A DNA stretch of 18,760 nt from a virus. Taxonomy: Duplodnaviria > Heunggongvirae > Uroviricota > Caudoviricetes. Positions 1-18,760 of this stretch are shown piece by piece; within the stretch, counting starts at the first letter, position 1; every line of letters begins with the position of its first letter. The stretch lies in IMG/VR virus record IMGVR_UViG_2563366883_000018; one strand, 5' to 3'. Below the pieces are notes generated by a model that was not told the origin of the DNA, ran no database searches, and worked only from the letters and a program-made list of their open reading frames with translations. Made by a program: the position numbers and the translations under genes.

Positions 1-1284
1 TTACAGACTTCTGGAAGGTTGCGCAGCTCTTACAACACGCGGTTGATCTTCCGCAGCGTCTTCCAGTGCACTTAAATCACGGTCTTTCACTTCTGGCATT
101 TTCAGCGCAGAGATTAAACCAATCACTGAATATGCCATGATCATAATGGCGATTGGATACCAGGATTCCGTCATGGTGCAGAAAATACCTGCCAGGATAG
201 GACCAAAACCGGAAGCGATAAGACCACCAATTTCTTTTGAAATAGCCATCCGGGTAAAGCGGTTTTTACAGCCGAACATTTCTGCCATGGTAATGTTTTC
301 CAGAGCAAATAATCCCAGCACCGCACAGTTATGAATCACAATCAGTGCAACCATAATGGTGCTCGGGGCATAGCTTTTATCTACGATGATAGAAAGCATT
401 GGCCATGCCAGCACAATCGCGGAGGTATTCATAATAATATACGGGATCCGGCGACCAATTTTATCGGATAACCAACCAAGGAACGGAATGGTCATAAAGC
501 CGAGAATCGAACTGATCATCAATGCATCTGTTGGAATTGCTTTGTTAAACAATAACGTCTGTACTAAATAGCCTGCAAGGAAAGTCTGAATTAACCCGGA
601 GTTACCTGCCTGACCAAAACGCAGTCCTGTTGCCAGCCAGAAGGATTTGCTCTGGAACATGCTACCAGCAGGTGCAAGTTTTGCTGTCGGTTGGTTGCTG
701 TCGTTAACCTTCTCAAAGACCGGGCTTTCTTTCAGATTCATACGTAACCAGATAGCAAAGACCATCACGACAACGCTCGCCAGGAACGGTATACGCCATC
801 CCCACGCCAGCAGTTCCTCTTTACTGAGAATGAAGAACATAAAGGCCCAGATTGCCGTTGCGCTCAAGGTTCCGCAGTTAGTTCCCATAGCTACAAATGA
901 GGAGATAATTCCGCGCTTACCTTTTGGCGCATATTCCGCCAGCATCGTACCGGCACCGGAAATTTCCGCACCTGCACCCAACCCCTGAATAATACGCAGC
1001 GTCACCAGCAAGATGGGGGCAAAAACACCAATCTGTGCATAGGTCGGTAACACACCAATTAAGGTGGTACAGATCCCCATCATGGTGATGGTAATAAAGA
1101 GCACTTTTTTACGCCCTATTCTGTCGCCCATTTTGCCGAAAATAAATGCTCCGACAATACGCGCCACATAACCTGCACCGTAGGTTCCCATTGCCAAAAT
1201 TAACGCCATTGCCGTTGATGATTCAGGAAAAAATATTTCATGAAACACTAACGCTGCGCCGAGCGAATATAACTGGAAATCCAT
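1..1284 (-). CDS. ydfJ: MFS-family transporter (KgtP/ProP/ShiA-like), 427 aa; appears to lack the region before and including TM1, with an in-frame stop two codons upstream of the first Met
   Basis: ORF track 1..1284(-); ATG at 1284-1282, TAA at 3-1; translation has multiple hydrophobic spans and a GRK/GRR-type loop motif (DRIGRKK, DKIGRR) typical of MFS transporters; N-terminus aligns by recollection to about residue 35 of KgtP. Confidence 0.85.
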   Translation of the reverse strand: MDFQLYSLGAALVFHEIFFPESSTAMALILAMGTYGAGYVARIVGAFIFGKMGDRIGRKKVLFITITMMGICTTLIGVLPTYAQIGVFAPILLVTLRIIQGLGAGAEISGAGTMLAEYAPKGKRGIISSFVAMGTNCGTLSATAIWAFMFFILSKEELLAWGWRIPFLASVVVMVFAIWLRMNLKESPVFEKVNDSNQPTAKLAPAGSMFQSKSFWLATGLRFGQAGNSGLIQTFLAGYLVQTLLFNKAIPTDALMISSILGFMTIPFLGWLSDKIGRRIPYIIMNTSAIVLAWPMLSIIVDKSYAPSTIMVALIVIHNCAVLGLFALENITMAEMFGCKNRFTRMAISKEIGGLIASGFGPILAGIFCTMTESWYPIAIMIMAYSVIGLISALKMPEVKDRDLSALEDAAEDQPRVVRAAQPSRSL

Positions 1285-2069
1285 AATTCACAGGTGTTTT
1301 TTCCCATCCTGTGGTTTCCTTGGCGTTTTCTAGGTTTTTTCAGATAGTTGCATTTTTTAAAAAGCATCCTAAGTTCGATCTCAGTGTCTATCTGGGGCCT
1401 ATTTCTGTCCCATATATGCCCCAAAAAAACTCCCCAACAGATAAGTAGTTTTTTCATGGATTTATGCGTAAAATCAAGAACGGCTGGAAATCATTCAATA
1501 CTCACACTATCGAAAAATTTACCAGCCAACCGCAGCACGTTCTTGCATAAGGCGTGTCTGCGGTTTTTCAACTATTCAGATACATCACTCCCATCACATT
1601 CATTCCTCCGCATCAAAGGCATATAGGCTATATCACCTTGATATTTTTCTTCTTCAGATAAAAACTGTTATCTATGTATACTTTTAAACCCAATCCGTGT
1701 AGAGTCTCTGCATAAGATAGTTTGCAGTTGCCGCTTCAGCTTGCGCCATAAACCGCCTGATTTTTGCTGCCACCTGTTAGCATTCCTGTATACCTGAAAC
1801 GACAATGTTTATCTACGAACTTTAAGAACACCCAAGATAAAAATTGTCAACTATATCATATATAACACATTACTAATTCGAGGCTATATGAACAGCATAC
1901 TGATAATCACTTCTCTCCTTATCATGTTCAGCATTTTTAGTCATGCCCTAATAAAATTAGGGATTGGCATATCCAATAACCCAGACAAAACCGATGTATA
2001 AGCCAACATATCCTGAATCAGACATACAATATCGCAATGAAAATCAATAATATTTTAAGGAATATCTTC

Positions 2070-2303
2070 ATGAAATCAAAAGACACCCTAAAGTGGTTCC
2101 CTGCGCAGCTTCCTGAAGTAAGAATTATCCTAGGGGATGCTGTAGTGGAAGTAGCAAAACAGGGAAGACCTATCAATACCAGAACATTGCTTGATTACAT
2201 TGAAGGAAACATAAAGAAAAAATCATGGCTGGATAACAAAGAATTATTACAAACAGCGATATCAGTTCTTAAAGACAACCAAAATTTAAATGGTAAAATG
2301 TAA
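2070..2303 (+). CDS. ydfK: Small prophage protein, 77 aa (cold-shock-associated YdfK/YnaE family)
   Basis: ORF track 2037..2303(+); internal ATG at 2070 is preceded by AAGGAA (2056-2061) and gives the 77-aa length I recall for YdfK; the 2037 ATG has no SD. Confidence 0.75.
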   Translation: MKSKDTLKWFPAQLPEVRIILGDAVVEVAKQGRPINTRTLLDYIEGNIKKKSWLDNKELLQTAISVLKDNQNLNGKM

Positions 2304-2532
2304 TATAATAAACTTACTTTTTTATCATTTTTCCACTTTAACAACATTTTGCTCCACTTTTCCACGACCAAACAACTTGAAATCTGGTTAAAATAACACG
2401 CAACACTATTCTTCTTCCTTGAGTCCGCCCGGAACTCGAAAAACAAACCGAGTTAAAGCCATTTTTCACAAAATCGATTTTGGGTCTCACCAAAATTACG
2501 GGGTTGCATACGCATTCGTTTATTTTCGAACG

Positions 2533-2552
2533 TGTACATACAAATATGTACA
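2533..2552. promoter_or_regulatory. Perfect 8-bp-arm palindrome TGTACATA-CAAA-TATGTACA about 70 bp upstream of pinQ; candidate operator or protein-binding site
   Basis: Read directly from sequence; function not established. Confidence 0.3.
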
Positions 2553-2619
2553 AAAATAATCAAAATTATTTTCTGAGATGCATTATGATATGAACACCAA
2601 TTTCGTATAGAATCTCACT

Positions 2620-3210
2620 ATGTCTCGAATTTTTGCTTACTGTCGGATATCAACGCTGGATCAGACCACCGAAAATCAACGCCGGGAAATCGAAAGTGCA
2701 GGTTTTAAAATCAAACCTCAGCAAATAATCGAAGAACACATTAGCGGCTCAGCAGCAACCAGTGAGCGTCCTGGTTTTAACCGGTTGCTTGCTCGCCTGA
2801 AATGTGGTGATCAATTGATTGTGACAAAACTGGATCGCCTTGGTTGTAATGCAATGGATATCAGGAAAACAGTGGAACAACTGACCGAAACAGGTATCAG
2901 AGTGCATTGCTTAGCATTGGGGGGCATTGACCTGACCAGTCCAACAGGAAAAATGATGATGCAAGTAATTTCAGCAGTCGCTGAATTTGAACGAGACCTT
3001 TTACTTGAACGCACTCATTCCGGGATAGTAAGAGCCCGCGGCGCAGGGAAACGTTTTGGTCGACCACCTGTGTTAAATGAAGAACAGAAACAGGTGGTAT
3101 TCGAACGAATTAAGTCAGGTGTAAGTATAAGTGCCATTGCCCGGGAATTCAAAACCTCGCGGCAAACCATTTTAAGAGCCAAAGCAAAACTTCAGACACC
3201 TGACATATAA
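2620..3210 (+). CDS. pinQ: Serine recombinase (resolvase/invertase family, PinQ/PinR-like), 196 aa
   Basis: ORF track 2620..3210(+); N-terminal YCRISTLDQ motif with catalytic Ser10, C-terminal HTH region; strong recalled similarity to K-12 PinQ/PinR. Confidence 0.93.
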
Positions 3211-3307
3211 AAAATAATCTCGGTGTGAGATGCTTTACGTCTTCCAAGCCCCCTTCCTTGCCGTAAATGGAAAGATACATCTAATTATAGAATTTATATG
3301 TTTTACC

Positions 3308-3883
3308 CTACGGCAGTGCTGGCCATTCAATATCCTGTGCAGTTGACGTATCAACACGGTTCAGCAATACCCGATACTTTTTCCATGCTTCCAGCAACGA
3401 GATTTCTTCCTCCGTTGCAATTTCCAGATCTGCAGCATCCTGAAGCGGCGCAATATGCTCACTGGCTACCTGCATCAGGTTGTTTTTTGTTTCTTCCGCC
3501 TCCCGGATCCGGAACAGTTTTTCTGCTTCCGTATCCTTCACCCAGGCTGTGCCGTTCCACTTCTGAAACTCCCCTTCCGGGGATAACCAGGTGACATTTT
3601 CCGGTAATGGGCCAAGTTCAGAAATAAATAACGCGTCGCCGGAAGCCACGTCATAGACGGTTTTACCCCGATGATCTTCAACGAGATGCCACGATGCCTC
3701 ATCACTGTTGAAAACAGCCACGAAGCCAGCCGGAATATCTGGCGGTGCAATATAGGAACTGTTTGCTGGCAGACCTGTATGAGGCGGAATATATGCGTCA
3801 CCTTCACCAATAAATTCATTAGTTCCTGCCAGCAGATTATAAATTTTTATGGTCCGTGGTTGTTCACTCATTCTGAATGCCAT
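3308..3883 (-). CDS. tfaQ: Tail fibre assembly protein (Tfa family), 191 aa
   Basis: ORF track 3308..3883(-); ATG at 3883-3881 overlaps the stf stop by 1 nt (TAATG), indicating translational coupling; lambda Tfa-like sequence. Confidence 0.9.
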
Positions 3884-6798
3884 TATGCAAGCCTCACAAT
3901 GTAGTTAAATGCGATGTTTTTGACAGTGTTTTCCGCGTTACCAGCAGCGTTAACGGTGATGGTGTGTCCATGTGAGCCAATCGCAACAGAGTGCGTATGA
4001 GCACCAATACCGACAGTATGTGCGTGAGCACCTGCAGATGCAGCTGTGCCGCTGACACTATGAGTGTGCGCTCCTGCAGCACTTGTATTCACACTGGCCG
4101 CAGACACTACCTTATGTACTGACCCATTTTGTGACCACTGGCTGACTGCTGATGCGCCTGTGACACTATGAGTATGGTTTCCGGCACTTGCGGCTGTACC
4201 GCTCACACTGTGCGTATGCGCCCCGGTGTTATTCGTGGATTTAGTGCCGTAATCAAACGACGATGTGGTTTTCGTCCCCAAATCCGTACTGGATGCACTG
4301 GCGCTGTGGGTGTGCGATTTAATGCCGTCCTGTTCCTGAGATAATACGGCCCGACCACTGGCAGGTTTGCCCTTAATCGTCCAGCCACGCATATCAGGGA
4401 TCACGCCTGACGGATAAGCGGTTGCAAGTTTCGGGTAAGCGGATTTGTCAAAAGTCTGCCCCTGCATCAGGGCATAACCAGACGGAACGGTATCTGATGG
4501 CCACGGGATTGGTGCGCCAGGCGGATAAAACTGCTCTGATGGCGTATAGAGTGAATAAACTGTACCGTCCGTTAACCCTTCCGGCTTATTAGCAGAATAT
4601 GCTGGTGACGTATGAATAGTCACGCTGGCATTACTGGTATAATCCCATTGAATATTTACACCAGTCGCATAATTTCCGATTGCAACGTAAATATCGTAAG
4701 TATCACCAGATGTATTGACCCAGGCAAAATTTGTAAACCCTGTCGATGTGCGCTGCCATAAAGCACCAGTAATCCCCTTCGGATTACCATTACCTGCACG
4801 CAAAACAAGTTCAGATATACCTGCCTGTTGAGGTGACCCCACGTTAAATCCCGCGCCACCAATCAACGTAATTGAAACAACAGAACTCGCCTGTGGCATG
4901 GTTACCGTTGCTAATTTGAACCAACCAGCACCACCGCTGAAGGACATTGTTGTTGAGTTAAGCGTACCAATATCTTTCGGCGTCAGTGTTATATCCGCTG
5001 AAAGCGCCTTACCATTCACCTTACGGGCAGAAGGTACCCGACCATTCGCATTATCATTAGCTGCTTTCACTGCTTTCGGTGTCGCGGCAAGCGTTTCAGA
5101 TGCGCTGTTGGTTGCACTACTGAGCTGGACAATTCCTTTTTGTGCTGTCGTAGCGTCCTGAGCAGTATATTTCCCGTTAGCAAGGTCATAGGCTGCCTTT
5201 ACCGACTTTGGCGTTGCCGCCAGCATTTCAGATGTGCTGTTGGTCGCGCTGCTGAGCTGAACTATCCCTTTCTGTGCTGTCGTTGCATCCTGTGCGGTGT
5301 ATTTCCCGTTAGCCAGCTCATACGCGGCCTTAACGGCTTTTGGCGTTGCCGCCAGTGACTCGGAAGTGCTGTTAGTCGCACTGCTGAGCTGTACTATCCC
5401 CTTTTTCGTCGTGCTCGCATCCTCAAGCGCCACGGCGGATGCAATATCCTCTGCCCGTTTTGCCGCTGTCTCGGCGCGCGTTGCCGCGGATTCCGCCGTA
5501 CTTTTGCTCTGAGCTGCCGCCGTCGCACTGCCAGCTGCCTCTGTCGCCTTCGTGGATGCCGTCGTGGCGCTGCCCTTTGCTGCTGACGCCTGTCTGGTCG
5601 CCTCATCTTTTGAAGCAGACGCAGATGATGCCGATGACGCCGCCGAACTGGCGGACGATGCGGCAGCCGTTTTTGAGGATTCTGCGCTGGTTTCCGACGC
5701 TTTCGCGTTCGTCTCGGATGTCTTCGCTGCGGAAGCAGACCTCGCTGCTGCGCTGGCCTGTTCAGTGGCTTCGCCAGCCTTCGTTGTGGCTGTTGAAGCG
5801 GACGATGCGGCGCTTTCTGCCGATTTTCCGGCAGCGGTGGCACTGGCTGAGGCCTGCCCGGCACTTGTTGACGCGGCACTGGCAGACGACGCAGCCGCTG
5901 TTTTTGAGCCTGCCGCAGCTGAGGCGCTCTGTCCCGCTGCCGTCTCAGAAGACCTGGCGTTCGTCTCGGACGTTTTTGCCGCCTTCGCGGAATTTGCTGC
6001 CGCCGTTGCCGAGGAAGCTGCGCTACTGGCGCTCGAGGATGCGTTCGTTTCTGATGATTTTGCCGCCTCTTTTGAAGCCGACGCATCCCGGGCTGAGGTG
6101 GCAGCTTCTGACGCTTTCGTAGTCGCGGTGGATGCAGAAGTGGCGGCTGATTGTTGTGACGCTGCAGCATTCGTTTCTGACGTTTTCGCGGCAGCGGCAC
6201 TGGTAGCTGCCGCGCTTTTTGAGGACTCTGCAGCGGCAGCACTTTTTTCCGCTTCAGTGGCCTTTGTTGATGCCGTTCCTGCGCTGGAAGACGCTGACTG
6301 AGCCGACGAAGCGGCCTGTCCGGCTGACGTGCTGGCTGCACGTGCTGAATCTGCAGCATCAGTCGCATGGGTTGCCGCCTCACGGGCAGATGTGCCGGCA
6401 TCACTGGCTGACTTCTTCGCGGCTGCCGTGTTCTGTGCCACCACGGACGCGTTACGCGCCACCTCTTCCACCATCTGTTCAAAACGGCGCAGTGCCTCCG
6501 GACGGGCATCATCCTCCGTCATGGCACCGAGAAAATCATTCAGCGTACCGGGTTGAGAATCTTCATACACGGTGATGGTCCCGGCATGTGACGGCGGGAA
6601 TCCTTCCACCAACAGAATAACGCTGTACTGCCCGTACTCAACGTCCATGCTGTAACGCCCGGCTTCATCCGGATTTTCTGAGGCCAGCGTGTTCACCACC
6701 ACCGTGGTGCTGTTACGTTTTGCTTTCAGCTGGATTGTGCAGTTCTGTACCGGTTTTCCTGTGCCATCTTTCAGTACACCTGAAATCTTTACTGCCAT
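3883..6798 (-). CDS. stfQ: Side tail fibre protein, full length (about 971 aa from ATG at 6798): lambda-Stf-like N-terminus, long Ala/Ser/Thr-rich central region, three tandem fibre repeats, His-rich HTHS C-terminal domain
   Basis: ORF track 3883..6804(-) begins with GTG; the ATG two codons in gives [26 protein letters not shown] (lambda Stf N-terminus as recalled) and is preceded by GGGGTGA; C-terminus ...[39 protein letters not shown] matches the lambda Stf C-terminus. Confidence 0.9.
5040..5410. repeat. Three tandem copies of a repeat of about 129 bp inside stfQ, encoding ...[44 protein letters not shown] (third copy degenerate)
   Basis: Visible in the protein (three near-identical 43-aa units) and in DNA (e.g. 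5091-5210 versus 5221-5340); boundaries approximate. Confidence 0.8.
5420..6470. repeat. GC-rich low-complexity region of stfQ encoding the Ala/Ser/Thr-rich segment; source of several spurious long alternative-frame ORFs
   Basis: Protein shows reiterated [18 protein letters not shown] motifs; DNA is dominated by GCNGC triplets; boundaries approximate. Confidence 0.7.
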
Positions 6799-6814
6799 AT
6801 TCACCCCACAAAAA

Positions 6815-6836
6815 AGCCCGCCTGAACCGGCGGGCT
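6815..6836 (-). terminator. Rho-independent terminator on the minus strand downstream of the lom fragment: 7-bp GC stem (6816-6822 with 6829-6835), then a T-run on the minus strand
   Basis: Minus strand reads ACAGCCCGCCGGTTCAGGCGGGCTTTTTTGTGG; the T-run overlaps the stf ribosome-binding region. Confidence 0.6.
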
Positions 6837-6862
6837 GTCATAACACTGTGTTACCTGGCTAA

Positions 6863-7300
6863 TCAGAACTTATAACCGACACCCACGATGAAACCGTCAG
6901 TGCGCCAGTCGCCACTGCCGGAGCCTTCATAAGCAATATCAATGGCCACGGATTCGGTCGGGTTAAACTGCACGCCAGCTCCCCACGCCAGAGACGTGTT
7001 GCTGTGGCGACCGTCATCACTTCCGGTCAGCACGTCGTGCGTTTTCCCCTTGTTGTCAGTTACGCGGAGATAATCCCCGGAGAAAGTCGACACACGGCTG
7101 TAAGCCATACCCGCCATCGCATACGCGCTGAACCATTCATTCACGCGCACAGACGGCCCCACCATCACGCTGAACCAGCGGTTACGCACGGAATCTTCAT
7201 GCCAGCGGGTATCGCTGTAACGGGTAAGCTGGCGATTCTTGTCTCCTGCATAGCTGCCGGACCCTCCATCCAGAATGACGCAATACGTGAACGCCGGGGA
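6863..7300 (-). pseudogene. lom: C-terminal fragment of a Lom/Ail/PagC-family outer-membrane beta-barrel protein; N-terminal part and signal peptide absent
   Basis: ORF track 6863..7189(-); frame stays open upstream to a stop at 7301-7303; translation ...[22 protein letters not shown]...AYEGSGSGDWRTDGFIVGVGYKF matches lambda Lom from about residue 85 to its C-terminal F. Confidence 0.75.
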
Positions 7301-8259
7301 TCACCATAACGACTGCCATCTGCATTGATGGATTCACCATCCCGTAACCAGACCCCACGTCCGTTCAGCTCGCGTTTTTGTTCAGGCAAAATCCGTCCTG
7401 AACAGGAAGGACACTGAATATAAGCCGCCTCACTTGCCAGCACAGGATCGGCAATATCACGGAAACCAGCAACCACATCGCCGCAGGGCTGAAAATACTC
7501 ACCACAGTGTGGACAGGGCCAGTACCAGCGACGGCGATCGCCACGGTTATAGAGCGACAGGATCCCCGTGGTTGGTGGAGCCTCATGCGGTGAAGTCCGT
7601 CGCCATTTCACATCCTTCACATCCCTGCCGGGGGAACTCTCCACCAGCGTCATACCACTGGACATAAATGTGGTGGTACGTTTTGAGGCAAGAGAGAAGG
7701 CATCCCCCTCACCATCAATATCTTCCGGAAAACGGTCATAATCCGTCAGCGCCACGCATTTATAATCTGATGAAGACATGATATTGACTGACGGCCAGCC
7801 GATTTTCAGGTAGTTGCCAGCAAGGAATGTTCTGTCATAAACGTTGTTGTCATTTTTGTTCGGACTCAGGCGACTGACCACTTCCGGGCTGACGCGAAAC
7901 GTTCTGGCGAGTCGTTTTTTGGAGTGTTCGCGGGCTTTTTCCTCCGTCATCTGAATGATCAGCATATCAGCAGGATCGCAAATCACGTTGTAAATCACCC
8001 AGCCGTCAATCAGGCCGATAGTCTTGCCGGTTCGTGCCGGGCCAACAAATATCACTGCGTCGTATTCACGCGAGGCCAGGCAGTTCATAGGCTCAATAAC
8101 ATACGGTGCCACCAGCGGATCCCACGGGACTGAGTTCCCTGCCCCCATAGGCACCCGCATATACTGAGCAACGGCATCAGCAACCCGCATTCGTCTCGGT
8201 GCGCGAAGGATATAACCTGAATCGGTTCGTGCTGCCTTTGCGGTTTCCTGATTCAGCAT
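7165..8259 (-). pseudogene. N-terminal fragment of a GpA-family large terminase subunit; the last ~40 codons of the ORF are out-of-frame lom sequence
   Basis: ORF track 7165..8259(-), 364 aa; P-loop GPARTGKT and CPHCGE zinc-finger-like motif as in lambda gpA; lambda gpA is about 641 aa, so the C-terminal half is missing; ATG at 8259 overlaps the nohA stop (TAATG). Confidence 0.8.
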
Positions 8260-8753
8260 TACTCCTCCTGCTGTAATTCCTCCTCATCATCCGCACCTGC
8301 TTCAGTCACCCGCAGGGCTATCTGATCGCGCAGATCATCAATAATGGACTGAACACGGCTCACAGCGGCAGGCTGCAGACCGCAGTCACGTTCAAGAATA
8401 TCCGGTAATGTCTCCAGCACCTGCACGACCGCTTTTGCCCAGATGGCAAACTCCCGTCTGACATCACTGGCCGGAATGAGTTGTGCCGTTTCCTGTTCGA
8501 ACTTAAGACGCTCACGTTCAGACTGATACCAGGCTTTGCGCTCATGCGCGTCCATTTCGCCTTCTGCAACCGGCGGTGGTAATGCCAGAAATGCCGACAC
8601 AATATCAACCACCCGATAAAGCTTGAGGTTGCTTTCATGCCCCCCTGCAACGGGTAGATTTTGCAGCCTTGCCGCAGCAGTCTGGCGATGTACACCTGAC
8701 AATGCCGCCAGTTGACTGATATTCAGCGTCAGATTTTTTAACTCTCGATCCAT
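8259..8753 (-). CDS. nohA: Terminase small subunit (Nu1-like), 164 aa, with N-terminal HTH
   Basis: ORF track 8259..8753(-); N-terminal HTH-like [24 protein letters not shown], acidic C-terminus; position immediately downstream of a cos-like site and upstream of the large terminase; the gene symbol rests on position and on a recalled NohA/NohQ identity. Confidence 0.8.
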
Positions 8754-8899
8754 ACCCGCTCCAGAATGTTTTAAACATGTATCTTGCGAACAACTTTAGG
8801 CAAACGGTGTTAGTGATGAACAAAAAACAATCAGAATCGACACCATAAAAATAAAACCACTGTAATATCAATCAATTACAGTAGTGGTGATGACGAATA

Positions 8900-8968
8900 A
8901 AATTTCAAAAACTAGCCTTTTTCCGCGACGCTCCCGCCCCGTGGCAGGGGCCCCCACCGGGAGGACCC
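8900..8968 (-). other. cos site of the lambdoid prophage (cosQ-cosN-like segment, with cosB presumed between it and nohA)
   Basis: Minus strand reads GGGTCCTCCCGGTG-15 nt-GGGGCGGGAGCGTCGCGG...TTTTTGAAATTTTATTCGTCAT, paralleling the lambda cos junction GGGTCCTTTCCGGTG-15 nt-GGGCGGCGACCTCGCGGG...TGAAAATTTTCC...TTCGTCAT as I recall it. Confidence 0.5.
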
Positions 8969-8992
8969 GACAGCCTGACAGCCTGACAGCCG
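8969..8992. repeat. Three tandem copies of an 8-bp unit GACAGCCT (last copy GACAGCCG) next to the cos-like element
   Basis: Read directly from sequence. Confidence 0.8.
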
Positions 8993-9127
8993 TGATGAGC
9001 ATCTGATACAGCGCTTTACATAATGGCATAGGAATAATTCAGAAGGACATCACAGCATGCCCACACAAATTAGTGTGAGTGTCCTGTTTCTTCCTACGCA
9101 CAGGACTGACGAGCATGAGGGGAAAAT

Positions 9128-9522: not shown

Positions 9523-9822
9523 TTTGTCGCTCCATGCGTTTGCTCGTCATCTAGCGGTTAAAATATTACTTCAAATCTTACTGCATAAAAGAGGAAAAGT
9601 ATGAAAGTTTGAGTACATCGACCTTACATACATCTGTCGGTTGCATATCCCTCCTGGATGCCAGCAAGGCTCAATTTTGTTACGCAATCAACACTATTCA
9701 TTAAAAACAGGCTTAATATTTGACATAAATCATCAACAAAACACAAAGAGGTCAGACCAGATTGAAACAATAAACACGATAATGCTAACTACGCGCCATC
9801 GTATCACATGGAAGGTTTACCA

Positions 9823-10254
9823 ATGGCTCAGGCTGCCATTTTTAAAGAAATATTCGATCAAGTGCGTAAAGATTTAAACTGTGAATTATTTTATTCTGAG
9901 CTAAAACGTCACAATGTCTCACTTTATATTTACTATTTAGCCACAGATAATATTCACATTGTGTTAGAAAACGACAACATAGTGTTAGTAAAAGGACTCA
10001 AAAAGGTTGTAAATGTTAAATTCTCCAGAAACAAACATCTTATAGAGACCTCCTATAATAAGTTGTAATCAAAAGAAATCACATTTCAACAATACAGGGA
10101 AAATCTTGCTAAAGCAGGAGTTTTCCGATGGGTTACAAATATCCAGGAACACCAAAGATATTACTATGCCTTTGATAACTCATTACTATTTACTGAAAGC
10201 ATCCAGAAAATTACTGAAAGCATCCAGAAAACTACACAGATCTTACCACGCTAA
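9823..10254 (+). pseudogene. ydfO: YdfO-like (DUF1398-type) prophage gene interrupted by an in-frame TAA at 10066-10068, with an in-frame 21-bp tandem duplication near the 3' end
   Basis: ATG at 9823 preceded by GGAAGG; the frame is continuous from 9823 to TAA at 10252-10254 except for the single stop; the segment after the stop reads ...[44 protein letters not shown]..., which looks like genuine protein sequence. Confidence 0.65.
10190..10231. repeat. Perfect 21-bp tandem duplication (TTACTGAAAGCATCCAGAAAA x2), in frame within ydfO ([14 protein letters not shown])
   Basis: Read directly from sequence. Confidence 0.9.
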
Positions 10255-10405
10255 ACCATAACGTCTGGCTTCTCTCACTCCTGAGCCGGACTGCATTGGT
10301 TTAATAAAAACCATCAACAATTGTGATTTAGATATTCGGAACCATTCAAATATAACAAAACCCCGTAAAAACGAGGTTTATGGATAAATTTTATTATTGA
10401 ATACA

Positions 10406-10579
10406 TCAGATTAAATTAATCTTGACATCATAGCTTTCAAGACCCGTCATTTTTTCCCGTGCGGTAAACTGAATACTGGTAACTTCTTTCCCGGTCTTTT
10501 TCTTAAGTTCAATAATTTTTTTTGTTATATATTCAGAAATATCTGCTTCTGCTTTTGTTTTTAAGTCTTCAATATTCAT
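10406..10579 (-). CDS. gnsB: GnsA/GnsB-family small protein, 57 aa (below the ORF-track threshold)
   Basis: Manual translation of the minus strand: MNIEDLKTKAEADISEYITKKIIELKKKTGKEVTSIQFTAREKMTGLESYDVKINLI; GAGG 5 nt upstream of the ATG; length and sequence fit recalled GnsB. Confidence 0.8.
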   Translation of the reverse strand: MNIEDLKTKAEADISEYITKKIIELKKKTGKEVTSIQFTAREKMTGLESYDVKINLI

Positions 10580-10750
10580 CATTTCCTCTTTTAGTCTGTT
10601 ATGACTTTCCAGTTACACAGTAAGTCGATTATATGGTGCAAACGTGTAAAAGATAAGATGAAACATCGCAATAATCAACATACGATAGTCTAAATTTTAC
10701 ACAAACAGACAAAGAGAATTTTCCTGAATTATCAATGCAATAGCATCAAA

Positions 10751-10981
10751 TCAACTCAAGAGCCTTATTGCTGCTTCCAGAATTTCTTCTGAAGTAACAT
10801 GTCGATCCGCGGCTACATAAATGACTTTATGATCTCCGGTCAGAGATGGAAACCCTGCGGCCATTACAGTAAGGTGTGTTTTTTCGCCATTTGGATATTC
10901 ACGCATGATGGTGTTAACTCCAGTCATCGCTGGCACTACCACTGCTGGTTCAGAGTTAAAAAAAACTATGATTTTTTTCAT
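10751..10981 (-). CDS. Hypothetical prophage protein, 76 aa, immediately upstream of gnsB (possibly ynfN/YmcE-like)
   Basis: ORF track 10751..11023(-); the internal ATG at 10981 (MKKIIVFF...) gives 76 aa; identity with ynfN not confirmed. Confidence 0.5.
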   Translation of the reverse strand: MKKIIVFFNSEPAVVVPAMTGVNTIMREYPNGEKTHLTVMAAGFPSLTGDHKVIYVAADRHVTSEEILEAAIRLLS

Positions 10982-11252
10982 GATGTTACCGTAGTATGTG
11001 AGTATCCATCGAATAGACACCAAGCAAAAAAGCTCCCGAAGGAGCCTTCATTTTCACTTTTTTAAATCCAACGACAGACGGCTGGCATTTAAGTATTGTG
11101 AAATATTATCAAATGTAATCATCATTGATTTACAAAAGATACATTTTGCCCCGAAAGGATTCATGTCAGAAACATCAAAAGATGATGTTCTATACTGGGA
11201 ACCATGACAACACGGGCATCTAAAGTGAATATGGTTTGTAATATTGTCTACC

Positions 11253-11465
11253 TCAAAGCGCCACTACATGAACAGCGGCAGGACCTTTAGGTCCGTTCTC
11301 AATACCAAATTCAACTTCCTGATTCTCAGTTAATGTTTTGAAATCGTTGCTCTGAATTGCTGAGAAATGGACAAACACATCTTTGCTGCCATCTTTCGGC
11401 GTGATGAAACCAAAACCTTTTTCAGGGTTAAACCATTTCACTAAACCAGTCATTTTGTTAGACAT
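11253..11465 (-). CDS. cspI: CspA-family cold-shock protein, 70 aa
   Basis: ORF track 11253..11465(-); [13 protein letters not shown]...KGFGFI...FVHFSA cold-shock domain with RNP1/RNP2 motifs; followed on the minus strand by a long AT-rich leader (11466 to about 11650). Confidence 0.93.
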
Positions 11466-11826
11466 AATTATTACCTTTTGAAGAAATTAGCCCTTGGGCA
11501 GAATGGTCCGAAAAAAATATCAGAGAGAAAAACCAACAAGGAAATCTCAAGAGGTACAAATAATAAAATTATAACAATGACTGCTTCAGATAAATTTGTA
11601 ACAAACCAGAACACCATTAACGCATGATTAACCACCCATAGCAAGGATTACTTTTGTAAAGAAAAACACAGCAATGAAAGAATAGCTTTATTTATTAATA
11701 AAACGTGTCATTCTGATTAAGACCTTTTATCTTACCCTTAAGATTTCAGGAATTTTGGCTCATGGAAGAGTCCTTTTTATTCAAATTTTACATTCCGCGA
11801 TGTAAATGTTCCGATTTAATATTACC

Positions 11827-12850
<1,024 letters not shown>

Positions 12851-12854
<4 letters not shown>

Positions 12855-13162
12855 AGATATTTATGATGAGGACGCTCGTGCTTATTGGCAGGATTTTCAA
12901 TCTTAAAGGAGTACTGATGCTGCAGATAAGACTCAACTTTTTCTGACAATTTTTCTGCTACTTCCAGGAAGACTTGCCGGACGCTCCTTCTGGCTGCTGC
13001 CTCATAAAACTCCAGCGCAGCTCCTTCAACACGGTCCATGGCGACATCCAGGTCAAAAATTTCACCGTCAAAGCGTTCTTTGTCCTGTAAGGCTACAGTT
13101 ACCGTAACTTTATTCTCAAAATTACGGACTCCTTTCACAACCAGTTCATAGTCTTGAGTCAT
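12851..13162 (-). CDS. ydfR: Prophage protein of unknown function, 103 aa, between holin and endolysin
   Basis: ORF track 12851..13162(-); ATG start with GAGGAGAG 7 nt upstream; recalled YdfR. Confidence 0.8.
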
Positions 13163-13166
13163 TGGA

Positions 13167-13382
13167 TTACTCTCCTCTCGCAGCCTTACGCCTGTCTTCT
13201 TTAATCTTGAAATAAAGATTTGTCAGATACGTCAGCAGGCCAAAAACCAGGCTACCCAGCACACCGATTGCAGCCCACTGTGACGGAGTTACTTTATCGA
13301 GTAACTGCAATGCCCAGAAACCAGCATTACCCGCCGATGTGCCATAGGCAACACCTGTTGTTAACTTATCCATTGATTTCAT
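13167..13382 (-). CDS. essQ: Class II holin, phage-21 S-type pinholin, 71 aa, with dual-start motif MKSM
   Basis: ORF track 13167..13457(-); the internal ATG at 13382 gives [71 protein letters not shown], near-identical in pattern to recalled S21. Confidence 0.9.
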
Positions 13383-13601
13383 ATCCTCACCCCGATGTAC
13401 ACGGATGGTGCAATATGTTTGAAAAGATCGGAGTCTACGGGGTAGTTTTGACAGCACACGTTGTTCTCAACGGCGCTAAAAAAACATACACATTAAAAAT
13501 ATGGGTAATTATTTTGAAAGAAAGTCATATATAAAATAATAATACGAGAAATGTTTTCATATTTAGTGTACTGTATACGGCCATTTATACAGGAAAAGCC
13601 T

Positions 13602-13772
13602 ATGTCAGAACGTAAAAACTCAAAATCACGCCGTAATTATCTCGTTAAATGTTCCTGCCCAAACTGCACCCAAGAGTCAGAACACAGTTTTTCAAGAGTA
13701 CAAAAAGGTGCCCTTTTGATCTGCCCTCATTGCAACAAAGTATTCCAGACAAATCTTAAAGCTGTAGCCTGA
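13602..13772 (+). CDS. Small zinc-ribbon protein, 56 aa (CPNC ... CPHC)
   Basis: ORF track 13551..13772(+); the internal ATG at 13602 is preceded by AGGAAAAG; two CxxC pairs; diverges from the late operon. Confidence 0.55.
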   Translation: MSERKNSKSRRNYLVKCSCPNCTQESEHSFSRVQKGALLICPHCNKVFQTNLKAVA

Positions 13773-13825
13773 TTGATTTTATTAGTAACAAGTATTTTTT
13801 ATATTTTAATAATATATTTAAAGCA

Positions 13826-13853
13826 GATAATAAAAAACCCGCCTGAGCGGGTT
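13826..13853 (-). terminator. Rho-independent terminator hairpin (stem AACCCGC/GCGGGTT, loop CTGA) with a strong T-run on the minus strand; weaker on the plus strand
   Basis: Minus strand reads AACCCGCTCAGGCGGGTTTTTTATT; about 280 nt downstream of the cspB stop and 60 nt downstream of the zinc-ribbon ORF. Confidence 0.55.
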
Positions 13854-14135
13854 TGAGATTGTGGTGCTTTTTGTGGGAGTCATCCACTTACGCACTTTGT
13901 TTTGCCATGCCAGCAGTTAGCTTCTGCTGTAAAACTATTCAGGCAGCAAACCTGCACTTCACCACAATGGTTAGCATACTTTTCCTGATTAAGATTTTGC
14001 CAAATATGCTAGCCATTGTTTCATGTATTGGACCTCCTTACTTTTTATTAAAGAGATCCAATATTCACTACTCTGTCCGTATCTCTACTCAGGCATCAGC
14101 CTTCTTCGTTATCGTATACAGACGAGCGATGAATT

Positions 14136-14351
14136 TTAATCAGTAATGATGACATTTGCTGCTGCAGGACCTTTAGCACCACTCTCTATAGAGAAGGTAA
14201 CCTTTTGACCTTCAAATAAGGTTCGATAATTATCATTCTGAATCGCAGAAAAATGCACAAACACATCTTTACTACCATCAACAGGAGAAATAAAGCCGAA
14301 ACCTTTATCAGCGTTAAACCATTTTACTAAACCAGTCATTTTATTTGACAT
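14136..14351 (-). CDS. cspB: CspA-family cold-shock protein, 71 aa
   Basis: ORF track 14136..14351(-); [21 protein letters not shown]... cold-shock domain. Confidence 0.93.
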
Positions 14352-14651
14352 TCTACATTCCTTAACTTGAGCCTTTCGGCATAAATGGTTTGCATAACAG
14401 AAACGACTTCGTACTTAATTGGAGAGACTCAAAGAAGGAATAAGTGAATAACACCTGAAATGAGAACTGCTTTAGTAAACTACTTCGTATATCGTCTGTT
14501 CTTCAAACCGACGCAATCATTAACGCATAGTTGAACATATGAAGCAATGTTTATTTTAGACATCCAGCCATCTTCAACCCCATCAAAAAACTATAGCTTT
14601 CTTCAGGAACGTGTGTATAGTGCGCCAAGTTATCAGTATTAAGGAATTTTT

Positions 14652-14864
14652 TTGTCCCGTAAAATGACAGGAATTGTCAAAACCTTTGACGGCAAAAGCG
14701 GCAAGGGCCTTATCACCCCATCCGATGGTCGTATCGATGTCCAGCTTCATGTTTCAGCGCTCAATCTCCGCGATGCAGAAGAAATTACCACCGGATTACG
14801 CGTGGAATTTTGCCGGATAAATGGTCTGCGTGGCCCTTCAGCTGCCAATGTTTACCTTTCATGA
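14652..14864 (+). CDS. cspF: CspA-family cold-shock-like protein, 70 aa, divergent from cspB
   Basis: ORF track 14652..14864(+); apparent TTG start (MSRKMTG...); cold-shock domain with a divergent RNP region. Confidence 0.85.
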
Positions 14865-14918
14865 GCTATATTAAAGCTTTAATTTCAGGCCCCATCGGAT
14901 CACACATGGAGAGTTTTT

Positions 14919-15008
14919 ATGAATAACCCCGTCTGTCTTGATGACTGGTTGATTGGCTTTAAAAGCTTATGCTGTACTTTGGCCGTAATAGCTCTGCTAA
15001 TAATATAA
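14919..15008 (+). CDS. Candidate small hydrophobic protein, 29 aa ([29 protein letters not shown])
   Basis: ATG at 14919 preceded by GGAGAG at 5-nt spacing; hydrophobic C-terminal half; no homology known to me. Confidence 0.25.
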
Positions 15009-15156
15009 TAAGCAGACTCATTGTGTTTAGGGACATTGTACTGGAAGAAAACATTTTAAACATCAGGCAAATAACCAAGTCACCAGCTAAATAATAAGTT
15101 AACAGACATGAGTCCCGGGATGAGATTCAACATTACCATTGCCCCATTTAAAGCAC

Positions 15157-15192
15157 AAAACCCGCTCATCAGCGGGTTTTCTACTTTTTCTT
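15157..15192. terminator. Bidirectional rho-independent terminator (stem AACCCGCT/AGCGGGTT, loop CATC) between convergent cspF and quuQ; on the minus strand a candidate tR'
   Basis: Plus strand hairpin followed by TTTTCTACTTTTTC; minus strand hairpin followed by TTTTGTGCTTT. Confidence 0.6.
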
Positions 15193-15225
15193 AGCGTCGG
15201 GTATACAAAGCCCATCGTTGAAAAA

Positions 15226-15254
15226 ATTTTATCCATATTTTTTGAAAAATGCAA
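15226..15254 (-). promoter_or_regulatory. Candidate Q-dependent late promoter (pR'-like): -35 TTGCAT, 17-bp spacer, -10 TAAAAT on the minus strand
   Basis: Read from sequence; lies 32-60 nt downstream of the quuQ stop and about 40 nt upstream of the terminator hairpin. Confidence 0.4.
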
Positions 15255-15285
15255 ACATCATGTCGCCATCTTCAGCAAAAATCAT

Positions 15286-16038
15286 TTATCTCGTCACCTT
15301 CCTCAATTGCGCTTCCGCGTATGCTTCTTCCTGCCAGCACTTTGTTACCAGTTTACCAATGACGTCCGCATACCCCTTATACCACTGATAATCGGTCAGG
15401 TCTGGTACCAGCTTCTGGACATGACGTCGTGCCAGCGTGGTCGGTAAACGACTAAACCGGTTTCCATTACAACGCCCACAAATCTTATATACCGGTACGC
15501 CATGAAACCGGGTTCTTTTTTCATCCAGAACAATCCCTTTACCCTTACACCCTCTGCACGCTGTGCTGGCTTCGCCCTTACCATGGCAATGCTGACATAG
15601 TTCCTTCACCCATTCTTCCTTGATTACAGATTCCCCGCGTCTGTAGTGTTTCACCACTTCGCGCAATACATTATAAAATCCCGTACCTGAACAATGCTCA
15701 CAGCGAGCCTTACTTGCCGCAGACCTGGAGTAATCAGCAAAGGCAAAACTCACGAGGTAAGGAATAATCTGTAACCGGATTTCTTCACTCAATTTGTTCA
15801 ATGTCGGGTTATCCAGTGCCATCGCGTAATTTAGCAGGCCTTCAATCGCAAACTGAGGGTCCTGAACACCAACTTTTGCCAGAAATAAGGCCAACCCAAG
15901 TGGTGCTTTCGACTGCACCATCCCCTGCGCTGCCATTACATCCGTAATTGTTAAACAACCGGTGCCTGCCGCTGGAGCGTCATCGCTCAATTTTGGAGAT
16001 TTTGGGGAGTAATATTTTGGTAAGGCTTCAAGGTTCAT
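15286..16038 (-). CDS. quuQ: Late-gene antiterminator Q-like protein, 250 aa
   Basis: ORF track 15286..16068(-); the internal ATG at 16038 is preceded by GGAG and gives 250 aa; several CxxC pairs (CEHC, CQHC, CRGC, CGRC). Confidence 0.88.
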   Translation of the reverse strand: MNLEALPKYYSPKSPKLSDDAPAAGTGCLTITDVMAAQGMVQSKAPLGLALFLAKVGVQDPQFAIEGLLNYAMALDNPTLNKLSEEIRLQIIPYLVSFAFADYSRSAASKARCEHCSGTGFYNVLREVVKHYRRGESVIKEEWVKELCQHCHGKGEASTACRGCKGKGIVLDEKRTRFHGVPVYKICGRCNGNRFSRLPTTLARRHVQKLVPDLTDYQWYKGYADVIGKLVTKCWQEEAYAEAQLRKVTR

Positions 16039-16051
16039 GCTCGTTCTCCAC

Positions 16052-17101
16052 TTACGCCAGTACGCCAATTGCCAGCGCGCGATCGATAAAACGAAATATC
16101 AGCTCCAGTTGGGAGCCATACTTATCTTCAAATGCCACTGTATCCGTATGCAGCTCGTTGTGATGCTTTCTGCACAAAGGCAACACAAAGAGATCATGTG
16201 CTTTTGTTCCCATTCCGCCCTGCCCGTGACCAATCAGATGATGCGGATCGTCGGCTGGCATACCGCAGCAAGCACACGGCTGTGTCTTAACCCAACGTGT
16301 GTATTTCTCCTTAACCCAGCGGCGACGTTTAGGCAGCTTCATGAAAGATTCCGGAGACTCTGGATCAACGGTGATGCTTACCACCGTCTTTTCCTGTGGT
16401 GATTTTTGTTGCTGGTGGGCGTAAGGCAACGGTGCAAGATTTTTTGTGCGTTGTTTCAATATGCTGGTGGCGGTCTGCTCTCCCGGTACGATGTCGCTTT
16501 CGCGGTACACCGAGCAGATTTTTTCCGCTGGTAATCCCAGCGAACGACGCGATACAGCCTCAGGTAGTGCATCCACCACCTGATTGCAGACCGCCCACCA
16601 GGATAATTCAGCCAAAGATAATTCCCGCTCCTGCGTACCGCTTATTGCGTGACGGATGACGTCAATCACCCATGCTGTCAGATTTTGTTGAGCAAGCAGC
16701 TCCAGTGATTCCGATGTCTGGTCACGCAGTTGGTTGTCGCAGTGCCAGCACAACACCATTGCGCCGGTACCATAACGGTGAATGACTGTTTCAGTGTGAT
16801 GGTAATCGCCATTAGGCCACTGGCAGGATGTAACATGACGTAATAGCCAGTCGGACAATGCGCCAACGCCGCCAGCAGCACGAATCACCCGTTCGTTACT
16901 AAAAAACGGCAGCAATGTTTTGTCTTCCGCCAGCGGCTGGCGAACGGCAGGAACGACTCCGGATGGCAGATTACGCATGCTTTTTGGTTCCGGTTCCACC
17001 AGCACTCGAGGATTATGAAATATCTGTATGGATTCACGGCCCGGCTTAAGGACCACCAGCCCAAGCTCAGGCACCAGAACAGGTCTAAGTAATACCCGCA
17101 C
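16052..17101 (-). CDS. ydfU: DUF968-family prophage protein, 349 aa, with C-terminal Cys/His HNH-like motif
   Basis: ORF track 16052..17140(-); the GTG at 17101 gives the 349-aa length I recall for YdfU and sits 1 nt after the upstream ORF's stop; C-terminus CACCG...HHLIGHGQGGMGTKAHDLFVLPLCRKHHNELH. Confidence 0.8.
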   Translation of the reverse strand: MRVLLRPVLVPELGLVVLKPGRESIQIFHNPRVLVEPEPKSMRNLPSGVVPAVRQPLAEDKTLLPFFSNERVIRAAGGVGALSDWLLRHVTSCQWPNGDYHHTETVIHRYGTGAMVLCWHCDNQLRDQTSESLELLAQQNLTAWVIDVIRHAISGTQERELSLAELSWWAVCNQVVDALPEAVSRRSLGLPAEKICSVYRESDIVPGEQTATSILKQRTKNLAPLPYAHQQQKSPQEKTVVSITVDPESPESFMKLPKRRRWVKEKYTRWVKTQPCACCGMPADDPHHLIGHGQGGMGTKAHDLFVLPLCRKHHNELHTDTVAFEDKYGSQLELIFRFIDRALAIGVLA

Positions 17102-17102
17102 G

Positions 17103-17381
17103 TTACCTCCAGATCCGTTGCTGGAAAGTGCGGGACGCACGTGGTGGGCGTTCGGAATAAGGCAGCCTGACAGAGATTATCCAGTGCCGATAGTCGAGAC
17201 TGAGAGCTTTCTTAACCTCGAACCCGCGCCTGCGGTAAGAATGAATCAGCCATTCGGCCTGTTCTGCAGTGCATGGAGGGTGCTGGAACCATTCAGACTT
17301 GAATGCGTGAGAATACCGCCCGTGCGTGCAGGCAAGAACGGGCGAATTATCAGAATTGTAATATTTTGCGTTGCGTGCCAT
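17103..17381 (-). CDS. Hypothetical prophage protein, 92 aa
   Basis: ORF track 17103..17381(-); ATG start with GGAG 8 nt upstream; stop abuts the ydfU start. Confidence 0.6.
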   Translation of the reverse strand: MARNAKYYNSDNSPVLACTHGRYSHAFKSEWFQHPPCTAEQAEWLIHSYRRRGFEVKKALSLDYRHWIISVRLPYSERPPRASRTFQQRIWR

Positions 17382-17447
17382 CGGTTTTCTCCGGTGGCAC
17401 GGTGTTACTCAGCGGGAGTTCAGCCCCGCGCAAGATTGTAGATGAGT

Positions 17448-17699
17448 TTATTCTCCTGAAAAAGCAGAAAAGCCAGCTTTTATTCCGATCTCTTTCAATG
17501 CCTGTAATGAAGTGACAAACTCACCTTCGCGCAAGATAAATCCGTCCGTGACCCGAGCATCCACAAAATTAATTAACGCAGCCCCATTCTTTCGCAAACA
17601 CATAATGCGGTAATGACTAACAAGATTTCCATTTTCAACGCACACAGCATAGAGGCCATCTTCACAAAAAATTTTACGCAGTTCTTCGATGTTCATCAT
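17448..17699 (-). CDS. Hypothetical prophage protein, 83 aa (position and length fit K-12 rem, sequence identity not verified)
   Basis: ORF track 17448..17699(-); begins MMNIEEL... Confidence 0.6.
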   Translation of the reverse strand: MMNIEELRKIFCEDGLYAVCVENGNLVSHYRIMCLRKNGAALINFVDARVTDGFILREGEFVTSLQALKEIGIKAGFSAFSGE

Positions 17700-17814
17700 C
17701 AGAATCCTTCCGGATAATTAGCTCTCCCCTTTAAGGGACCATCCCTCTTATCCCTGCGCGCTACTTAAGTATTTTTGATTCTATTCCGGCACCGTCCAGA
17801 ACTTCAAACGCGTT

Positions 17815-18430: not shown

Positions 18431-18666
18431 CAGAGTTCATCCAGCGTCACACGTACTGGCTTAGGATTACGAAGCCGTTCTTTCACTATCTCCACAAGTT
18501 CAGCATCTTCATCACTCAGGAGTGTCTGTTTGAACGGCAAGCGTTCATTGTCAGCGATATACTCGAGCATGAGACGAAGCGCTTCAGAAGGAGTTACACC
18601 CATTTTTTCAAGCGCGGCGTAAGAACGCGCTTTAAGTTCATCGTCAATACGCAGGTTAATGCTACC
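18430..18666 (-). CDS. relB: RelB antitoxin coding sequence (codons 2-79 plus stop); the native ATG is split by the IS1 end
   Basis: ORF track 18430..18681(-) starts at a TTG inside the IS1 inverted repeat; translation from codon 2 is GSINLRIDDELKARSYAALEKMGVTPSEALRLMLEYIADNERLPFKQTLLSDEDAELVEIVKERLRNPKPVRVTLDEL; the stop overlaps the relE ATG (ATGA). Confidence 0.85.
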   Translation of the reverse strand, partial: GSINLRIDDELKARSYAALEKMGVTPSEALRLMLEYIADNERLPFKQTLLSDEDAELVEIVKERLRNPKPVRVTLDEL

Positions 18667-18667
18667 C

Positions 18668-18760
18668 GGTAATGACTCCAACTTATTGATAGTGTTTTAT
18701 GTTCAGATAATGCCCGATGACTTTGTCATGCAGCTCCACCGATTTTGAGAACGACAGCGA
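18668..18760 (-). mobile_element. insB: IS1 insertion sequence, partial (terminal inverted repeat plus the last 26 codons of insB); continues beyond the window
   Basis: 18668-18760 reads GGTAATGACTCCAACTTATTGATAGTGTTTTATGTTCAGATAATGCCCGATGACTTTGTCATGCAGCTCCACCGATTTTGAGAACGACAGCGA, the canonical IS1 end as I recall it; the minus strand encodes ...SLSFSKSVELHDKVIGHYLNIKHYQ-stop. Confidence 0.9.

Follow-up and report, generated by a model that had tools for sequence, protein, structure and literature searches.

The fusion of the N-terminal half of a large terminase gene to the C-terminal part of lom described here is very probably a scar of neutral decay in a Qin-type lambdoid prophage, left by one deletion between two copies of the pentamer CAGCT in a mEp460-like ancestor. 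The DNA analyzed is 18,760 nt long and is hereafter called the window. Judged from its integration in ydfJ and its gene order, the window is a Qin-type cryptic prophage of E. coli, and all carriers of the junction show the same context. That one deletion removed the head and tail module and joined the two gene parts had been proposed by a first-pass annotation from the sequence alone, and this core reading is supported by flanks collinear with those of a near-intact prophage and of phage mEp460, by a 5-bp microhomology without filler and by the Pfam-incomplete state of both genes.

The Deletion Junction

The main reference for the breakpoint was the near-intact prophage of strain TUM14664 (L004), which occupies the same ydfJ locus. 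By BLAST, window 7252-9000 aligns to L004 26054-27802 at 99.9% (terminase homology) and window 6500-7256 aligns to L004 7434-8190 at 98.2% (lom/stf homology), and the high-scoring segment pairs from the two sides share exactly 5 bp. The breakpoint thus falls inside the range of 7165-7330 given by the first-pass annotation; the start of lom, placed there at about 7300, has to be moved to 7256, where homology to lom begins in the comparison with L004.

7252-7256, minus strand: deletion junction with a single retained microhomology, CAGCT (AGCTG on the plus strand), placed by three-way alignment and overlap of the BLAST segment pairs.

When the window is aligned three-way with the terminase side and the lom side of L004, a clean switch from the terminase parent to the lom parent is seen across the pentamer, with no filler DNA. 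The pentamer corresponds to nt 1004-1008 of the terminase gene (codons 335-336) and to nt 207-211 of lom (from position 3 of codon 69 to position 1 of codon 71). Phage mEp460, an independent reference, likewise carries CAGCT at both parental sites, 17,112 bp apart. The probability that a random join has a junctional homology of 5 bp or more is about 0.005. The junction hence combines the features by which a microhomology-deletion scar is recognized: collinear flanks, a repeat at both parental sites, one remaining copy and no inserted bases.

The Truncated Terminase and Its Upstream Partner

The terminase side of the junction consists of the following features:

8259-8753, minus strand: intact 164-aa DUF1441 gene in the small-terminase position (Pfam PF07278, E=2.7e-41).
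7252-8259, minus strand: large terminase (GpA family) remnant, codons 1-336 of 700 (Pfam; 0 differences to L004).
7165-7251, minus strand: 28 codons and the TGA stop that close the 364-aa ORF, lom DNA read one base off the lom frame (translation and frame arithmetic).

The 364-aa ORF spans 7165-8259 on the minus strand. It had been described as bearing terminase GpA hallmarks and ending out of frame, and Pfam and the frame analysis agree with that description. The stub carries an ATPase domain with the Walker A motif GPARTGKT and the zinc motif CPHCGE, so that the N-terminal ATPase domain and Walker A motif expected of the GpA family are both present. The only Pfam match of the ORF is to GpA_ATPase (PF05876), at residues 41-304 with E=3.7e-72. 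The intact 700-aa orthologue of L004 contains GpA_ATPase plus GpA_nuclease (PF20454) at 326-644; no Pfam match to the PF20454 nuclease domain was found in the 364-aa ORF, which is also short of the full length of ~640-700 aa. The 364-aa protein is thus no full-length family member, full length being 700 aa with the nuclease domain. On its domain content, the ORF is classed as a gene remnant and not as a GpA family member in the functional sense.

Over its 1008 nt, the stub differs from L004 at 0 nt and 0 aa. Past residue 336 (...EGPAA), the intact terminase reads on as ...GPAAAYQTLSQL, whereas the window reads different residues: ORF residues 337-364 are lom DNA in the wrong frame, closed by the stop at 7165-7167.

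The stop of the upstream DUF1441 gene overlaps the terminase start (ATGA), and its product is labelled "terminase small subunit" in phage mEp460 and relatives. The first-pass annotation had called this small gene NohA/Nu1 and the packaging module lambda/21-type. Neither label holds, as Pfam assigns the protein to DUF1441, BLASTP finds no similarity between it and the Nu1-type NohA of strain MLI105 (E=18), and the module is of the mEp460/cdtI type, with TerS and TerL 98.7% identical to those of mEp460. As to cos, which the first-pass annotation took to be kept, the lambda cosN 12-mer has no match in the window when up to 2 mismatches are allowed. The start of the mEp460 record was considered as a proxy for cos and rejected; the record merely begins at the annotated TerS start codon.

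Two unrelated packaging modules share one Qin position in different strains (window 8259-8753 versus L012 9250-9795 and K-12 nohA). One, of the mEp460 type, consists of DUF1441 and a 700-aa GpA-type TerL and is found in the window, while the other consists of a Nu1-like NohA and a lambda-type A and is found in K-12, MLI105, 52F4 and ET979. The late genes around both modules are >98% identical, which makes this a clean mosaic boundary.

The lom Remnant

Two features were identified on the other side of the junction:

6863-7256, minus strand: lom remnant, codons 70-199 plus stop, ending in GYKF (Pfam Ail_Lom; compared with L004 Lom).
6815-6836, minus strand: Rho-independent terminator-like hairpin and T-run directly 3' of lom (terminator scan).

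The minus-strand frame 6863-7258 matches Ail_Lom (PF06316) at profile positions 70-199 of 199 with E=1.9e-74, and the fragment differs from residues 70-199 of L004 Lom at 2 aa. The suggestion that another frame of this DNA encodes a Lom/Ail-like C-terminus ending in GYKF is confirmed by this match, and the 6863-7256 part of the proposed 6863-7300 frame is indeed Lom. Homology over the retained part and the aromatic C-terminal residue of the Ail/Lom family are both present. A complete barrel would comprise profile positions 1-199 and a signal peptide, and only positions 70-199 are found. Missing are codons 1-69, including the signal peptide MRKLYAAILSAAICLAVSGAPAWA and ~45 mature N-terminal residues. 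Without its signal peptide or first strands, the Lom fragment would be unable to form an outer-membrane barrel.

The fragment also lacks a start of its own; the ORF that gene callers place here is 100-108 aa long, and its ATG overlaps the TGA of the chimeric ORF. At window 7163-7167, the two codons lie in gtGATGg, where the 100-aa Lom-fragment ORF begins. From this arrangement, the deletion appears to have accidentally made a translationally coupled pair of the chimeric ORF and the Lom-fragment ORF, both of which are called as genes. The hairpin at 6815-6836 is the normal lom terminator, untouched by the deletion; in mEp460, too, a terminator is annotated 3' of lom, at the corresponding position.

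Genes Lost and Genes Retained

The loss amounts to 17,868 bp when measured on L004 and to ~17.1 kb (17,112 bp) on the viable phage mEp460, and the L004 interval is longer because an IS1 sits in the L004 tape-measure gene. The gene order of L004 is DUF1441, the 700-aa terminase, DUF6148, portal, a ClpP/major-capsid fusion, the tail genes through J, lom, stf, tfaQ and pinQ. As annotated in L004, 16 complete morphogenesis genes lie in the deleted interval: on the tail side J, I, K, L, M, the tape measure, T, G, V, U and a Z-like tail gene, and on the head side two small head/tail genes, protease/capsid, portal and adaptor. Terminase codons 337-700, with the GpA_nuclease domain, were lost as well. 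The comparison with intact prophages that the first-pass annotation had called for is thus provided by L004, where the flanks are collinear at the Qin locus and the whole module is present. A single short-homology deletion would in this way account for the loss of 38% of an mEp460-sized genome.

The right flank of the deletion retains the following genes:

3883-6804, minus strand: stf, intact 973-aa side tail fibre gene (ORF list, collinear-locus annotation).
3308-3883, minus strand: tfa (ORF list, collinear-locus annotation, Pfam labels).
2620-3210, plus strand: pinQ (ORF list, collinear-locus annotation, Pfam labels).

Of the genes lom, stf and tfa, all previously taken to have been kept, stf and tfa are present, while lom is itself truncated to codons 70-199. 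The stf gene is intact in a dead prophage, and has a long Ala/Ser-rich low-complexity middle as well as a 132-nt tandem repeat of 2.4 copies (especially 5090-5400). Window 4518-5318 is the sole stf-side part that does not align to L004, and is thus a hypervariable segment.

Window 1-4051 and 9745-17797 align to the Qin prophage of K-12 MG1655 at 98.6-98.7%. One flank reads ydfJ-ydfK-pinQ-tfaQ and the other gnsB-ynfN-cspI-rzpQ-rrrQ-ydfR-essQ-cspB-cspF-ydfT-ydfU-rem-hokD. Three further features of the window were observed. The DUF1398 (ydfO-like) ORF at 9808-10068 is 86 aa long (81 aa as called in carriers) versus 136 aa in L004 and K-12, so that this prophage probably bears another, minor truncation here. 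A 258-bp stretch of the cspF region at 14855-15112 is also found in K-12 and is absent from L004, in which cspF is annotated as truncated. The last 100 nt (18661-18760) match an IS1 end at 98%, which places the end of the window at an early-region IS1 insertion.

Distribution of the Junction

Over 18,259 nt, the window shows 100% identity to a scaffold of 5.15 Mb from NCBI assembly GCA_000351025.1, a draft genome of the KTE112/KTE193 type. The exact 364-aa protein has been deposited as "hypothetical protein" from E. coli KTE112 (ELC88492.1) and KTE193 (ELI29290.1), annotations that are here corrected to terminase::lom chimeric pseudogene. Located by exact-protein look-up, the chimeric protein is found on 60 contigs in 132 collection blocks (NCBI, ENA and Logan), always with the same neighbours, and it was assembled both in several draft genomes at NCBI and in gut metagenomes of different ENA studies. 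The copies retrieved match the window at 99.8-100% over 18 kb; the carriers are almost clonal. With 0 differences to L004 and nearly clonal carriers, dN/dS on the stub is uninformative.

Among the 5426 complete RefSeq genomes of E. coli, none matches the window contiguously from one side of the junction to the other, and the two records with both halves have DNA between them. Scans for the junction 31-mer in GTDB species representatives and for a 25-mer in JGI metagenome contigs gave no exact match. The junction is known from draft and metagenome assemblies only. These observations, together with the draft scaffold from which the window comes, are what would be expected if assembly or scaffolding had joined contigs that end in prophage repeats. 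That an assembler produced the junction is nevertheless extremely unlikely, as the identical chimeric ORF and its neighbours were assembled independently in NCBI genomes and in ENA metagenomes of different studies, on 60 contigs in all. Their recurrence in independent assemblies marks the junction as a genuine allele that is inherited within a lineage.

Origin of the Deletion

We propose that the ancestor of the window had a mEp460-like late region of the order TerS-TerL-head-tail-J-lom-stf-tfa. Illegitimate recombination of a RecA-independent type would have joined the CAGCT copies at terminase nt 1004-1008 and lom nt 207-211, ~17.1 kb apart, the likely route being replication slippage or short-homology end-joining. 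The interval and one copy of the repeat would have been lost and one CAGCT kept, which would leave an ATPase-only terminase stub followed by 28 out-of-frame codons and a lom fragment deprived of its start, signal peptide and first beta-strands. Given the established roles of the missing genes, both remnants would be non-functional, and the element would no longer be able to cut cos, package DNA or build heads and tails. A deletion mediated by an insertion sequence was considered and rejected: neither IS sequence nor target duplication is present at 7252-7256, and the IS1 found in the tape-measure gene of L004 is particular to its lineage.

The alignment is most simply read as one step, and earlier nested deletions inside the interval would leave the same junction. 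Several events might have led up to the junction, either deletions nested in one another or an exchange between two different lambdoid prophages with a later loss. Consistent with such a history, the window differs from L004 at 0 of 1008 nt on the terminase side versus 14 of 757 nt on the lom/stf side, and some other alleles of this locus are multi-step, for instance with a 63-nt J scrap in MB06233 and an IS3 at the junction of ML775. The unequal flank identities (100% for terminase and 98.2% for lom/stf) do imply that L004 is not the direct parent and that recombination touched the stf side. However, stf/lom regions tend in general to be more mosaic, and the lower identity is accounted for in this way with no need of extra events; moreover, the junction contains no filler or foreign DNA, its 5-bp microhomology matches the intact terminase and the intact lom on both sides, and both flanks are syntenic with one Qin locus. 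We consider a multi-event origin unlikely. The polarity of the change could formally also be reversed, with the short form ancestral and the 17-kb block of TUM14664 and mEp460 an insertion. There is next to no chance of this, because both genes at the junction fall short of their family profiles, Lom by positions 1-69 including its signal peptide and the terminase by its entire nuclease domain, whereas the long form, a viable phage, has each of them whole and uninterrupted.

Other Deletion Alleles at the Qin Locus

At least 11 further virion-module deletion alleles are found at the ydfJ locus, including nohA::stfQ of K-12, all with different breakpoints. They were examined in the Qin loci of other E. 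coli strains (L002, L003 and L011-L018), with window 6863-8753 as the reference, and include the following:

MB06233, mEp460-type: TerL ~333 codons, a 63-nt J scrap and the lom C-terminus.
ZH177, mEp460-type: TerL ~427 codons joined to the J C-terminus, lom intact.
EC21Z-137, mEp460-type: TerL ~150 codons joined to tail-assembly gene I.
MB06234, mEp460-type: TerL ~366 codons, then the stf C-terminus.
ML775, mEp460-type: TerL 186 nt, IS3 and intact lom.
MLI105, lambda-type nohA/A: A ~635 codons joined to lom.
ET979, lambda-type nohA/A: A ~483 codons joined to lom.
52F4, lambda-type nohA/A: A 83 codons joined to lom codon 71, in frame.
19SZHZ713Rt, lambda-type nohA/A: nohA 131 nt joined to J.
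K-12, lambda-type nohA/A: nohA joined to stfQ.

A further TerL::lom scar occurs in a different prophage of strain EC27 (L001). No left end among the seven GpA-type alleles reaches into the DUF1441 gene, and the right end lies inside the 600-nt lom in five alleles here and in the EC27 prophage, in a sample that is for both counts biased towards window-like alleles. PGAP annotates the remnants of other alleles as "incomplete" pseudogenes, and Qin has been reported to measure 11-97 kb in a set of 189 strains (PMC6379469). Events of this sort are already well known and are commonplace at the locus; it is only this particular junction that is undescribed.

Strain 52F4 (L015 7155-7787) has an open chimera of 210 aa in which codons 1-83 of the lambda-type A run in frame into codons 71-199 of Lom. 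Here lom is broken at TAT (nt 211-213 of the gene), which has one base in common with the CAGCT of the window (nt 207-211). A breakpoint hot spot in lom was considered; with 6 breakpoints in 600 nt, some pair falls within 4 bp with p ~0.2, and the proximity was treated as coincidence. Derivation of the window allele from a 52F4-type allele, through homology-facilitated illegitimate recombination at the old junction, was rejected, because the CAGC at the window junction matches intact lom on the upstream side of the 52F4 break, and such a derivation would require a 1/256 coincidence.

The truncated terminase might be a domesticated, expressed product that works with the DUF1441 small subunit and not a dead remnant; for instance, it could bind TerS or cos in a dominant-negative manner and so poison packaging by superinfecting mEp460-type phages. 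Its ORF is open, its Walker A motif intact and its ATPase domain complete, all seven GpA-type alleles keep an intact DUF1441 gene upstream, the 60 contigs carry the ORF without change, and prophage defences that target terminase exist in Listeria (10.1101/2025.02.27.640495). A working stub is very unlikely all the same. Carriers 99.8-100% identical over 18 kb are so nearly clonal that conservation says nothing on selection, stub length varies from ~62 to ~635 codons between alleles, the C-terminal tail is an accidental out-of-frame read, and any stub that begins at the intact start codon is bound to be open.

More broadly, repeated loss of the virion module could result from selection (domestication) and not from neutral decay, if the ATPase stub and TerS hindered mEp460-type packaging or if retention of stf-tfa-pinQ constrained the right ends. 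In at least 12 alleles, counting that of the window, left ends of the GpA type stay short of the DUF1441 gene and most right ends lie in J or lom just before stf-tfa-pinQ, and Stf variants generated by PinQ block T2 adsorption in K-12 (PMC12529663). Such selection is improbable, and neutral decay is preferred for the window allele. As a natural data set, the Qin allelic series could allow measurement of how often prophage-inactivating deletions arise and which end points they prefer, and could be used to ask whether selection holds the flanking genes.

Comparison with Known Systems

The window is a base-pair-resolved example of a lambdoid prophage made permanently defective, which matters little alone. 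The Qin prophage of K-12 MG1655 (b1543-b1580 region) is likewise integrated in ydfJ, has the same flanking order with 98.6-98.7% identity over ~12 kb, and has also lost its entire head/tail module through an internal deletion. It differs from the window in carrying a lambda/Nu1-type nohA in place of the mEp460-type module of DUF1441 and GpA. The K-12 deletion runs from the end of nohA to the C-terminal third of stfQ and leaves no terminase stub, lom fragment or stf N-terminus, all three of which are found in the window.

Phage mEp460 (NC_019716) and its relatives (Ayreon, phi458 and the cdtI-type late region) share the TerS (DUF1441)/TerL pair at the 98.7% identity given above. From the mEp460 order TerS-TerL-adaptor-portal-protease/MCP-...-J-Lom-Stf, the window can be derived by one deletion between CAGCT pentamers. 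Unlike the window, mEp460 has a full set of morphogenesis genes and is viable, with a genome of 44.5 kb; the 17.1 kb that separate TerL codon 336 from Lom codon 70 are missing from the window. The early and lysis regions of the window, with their cold-shock genes, gnsB and hokD, are of the Qin type and unlike those of mEp460.

Short-homology spontaneous deletions in E. coli are classically described for lacI, where they occur between short direct repeats. Like the scar in the window, the lacI-type deletions end in short direct repeats, keep one copy and contain no inserted DNA; in comparison, the repeat of the window is just 5 bp and its interval ~17 kb, a length that is rare among slippage-type events. 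The other terminase::lom and terminase::J alleles of the Qin locus resemble the window in outcome: the virion module is gone while the TerS side and the stf-tfa-pinQ side are kept.
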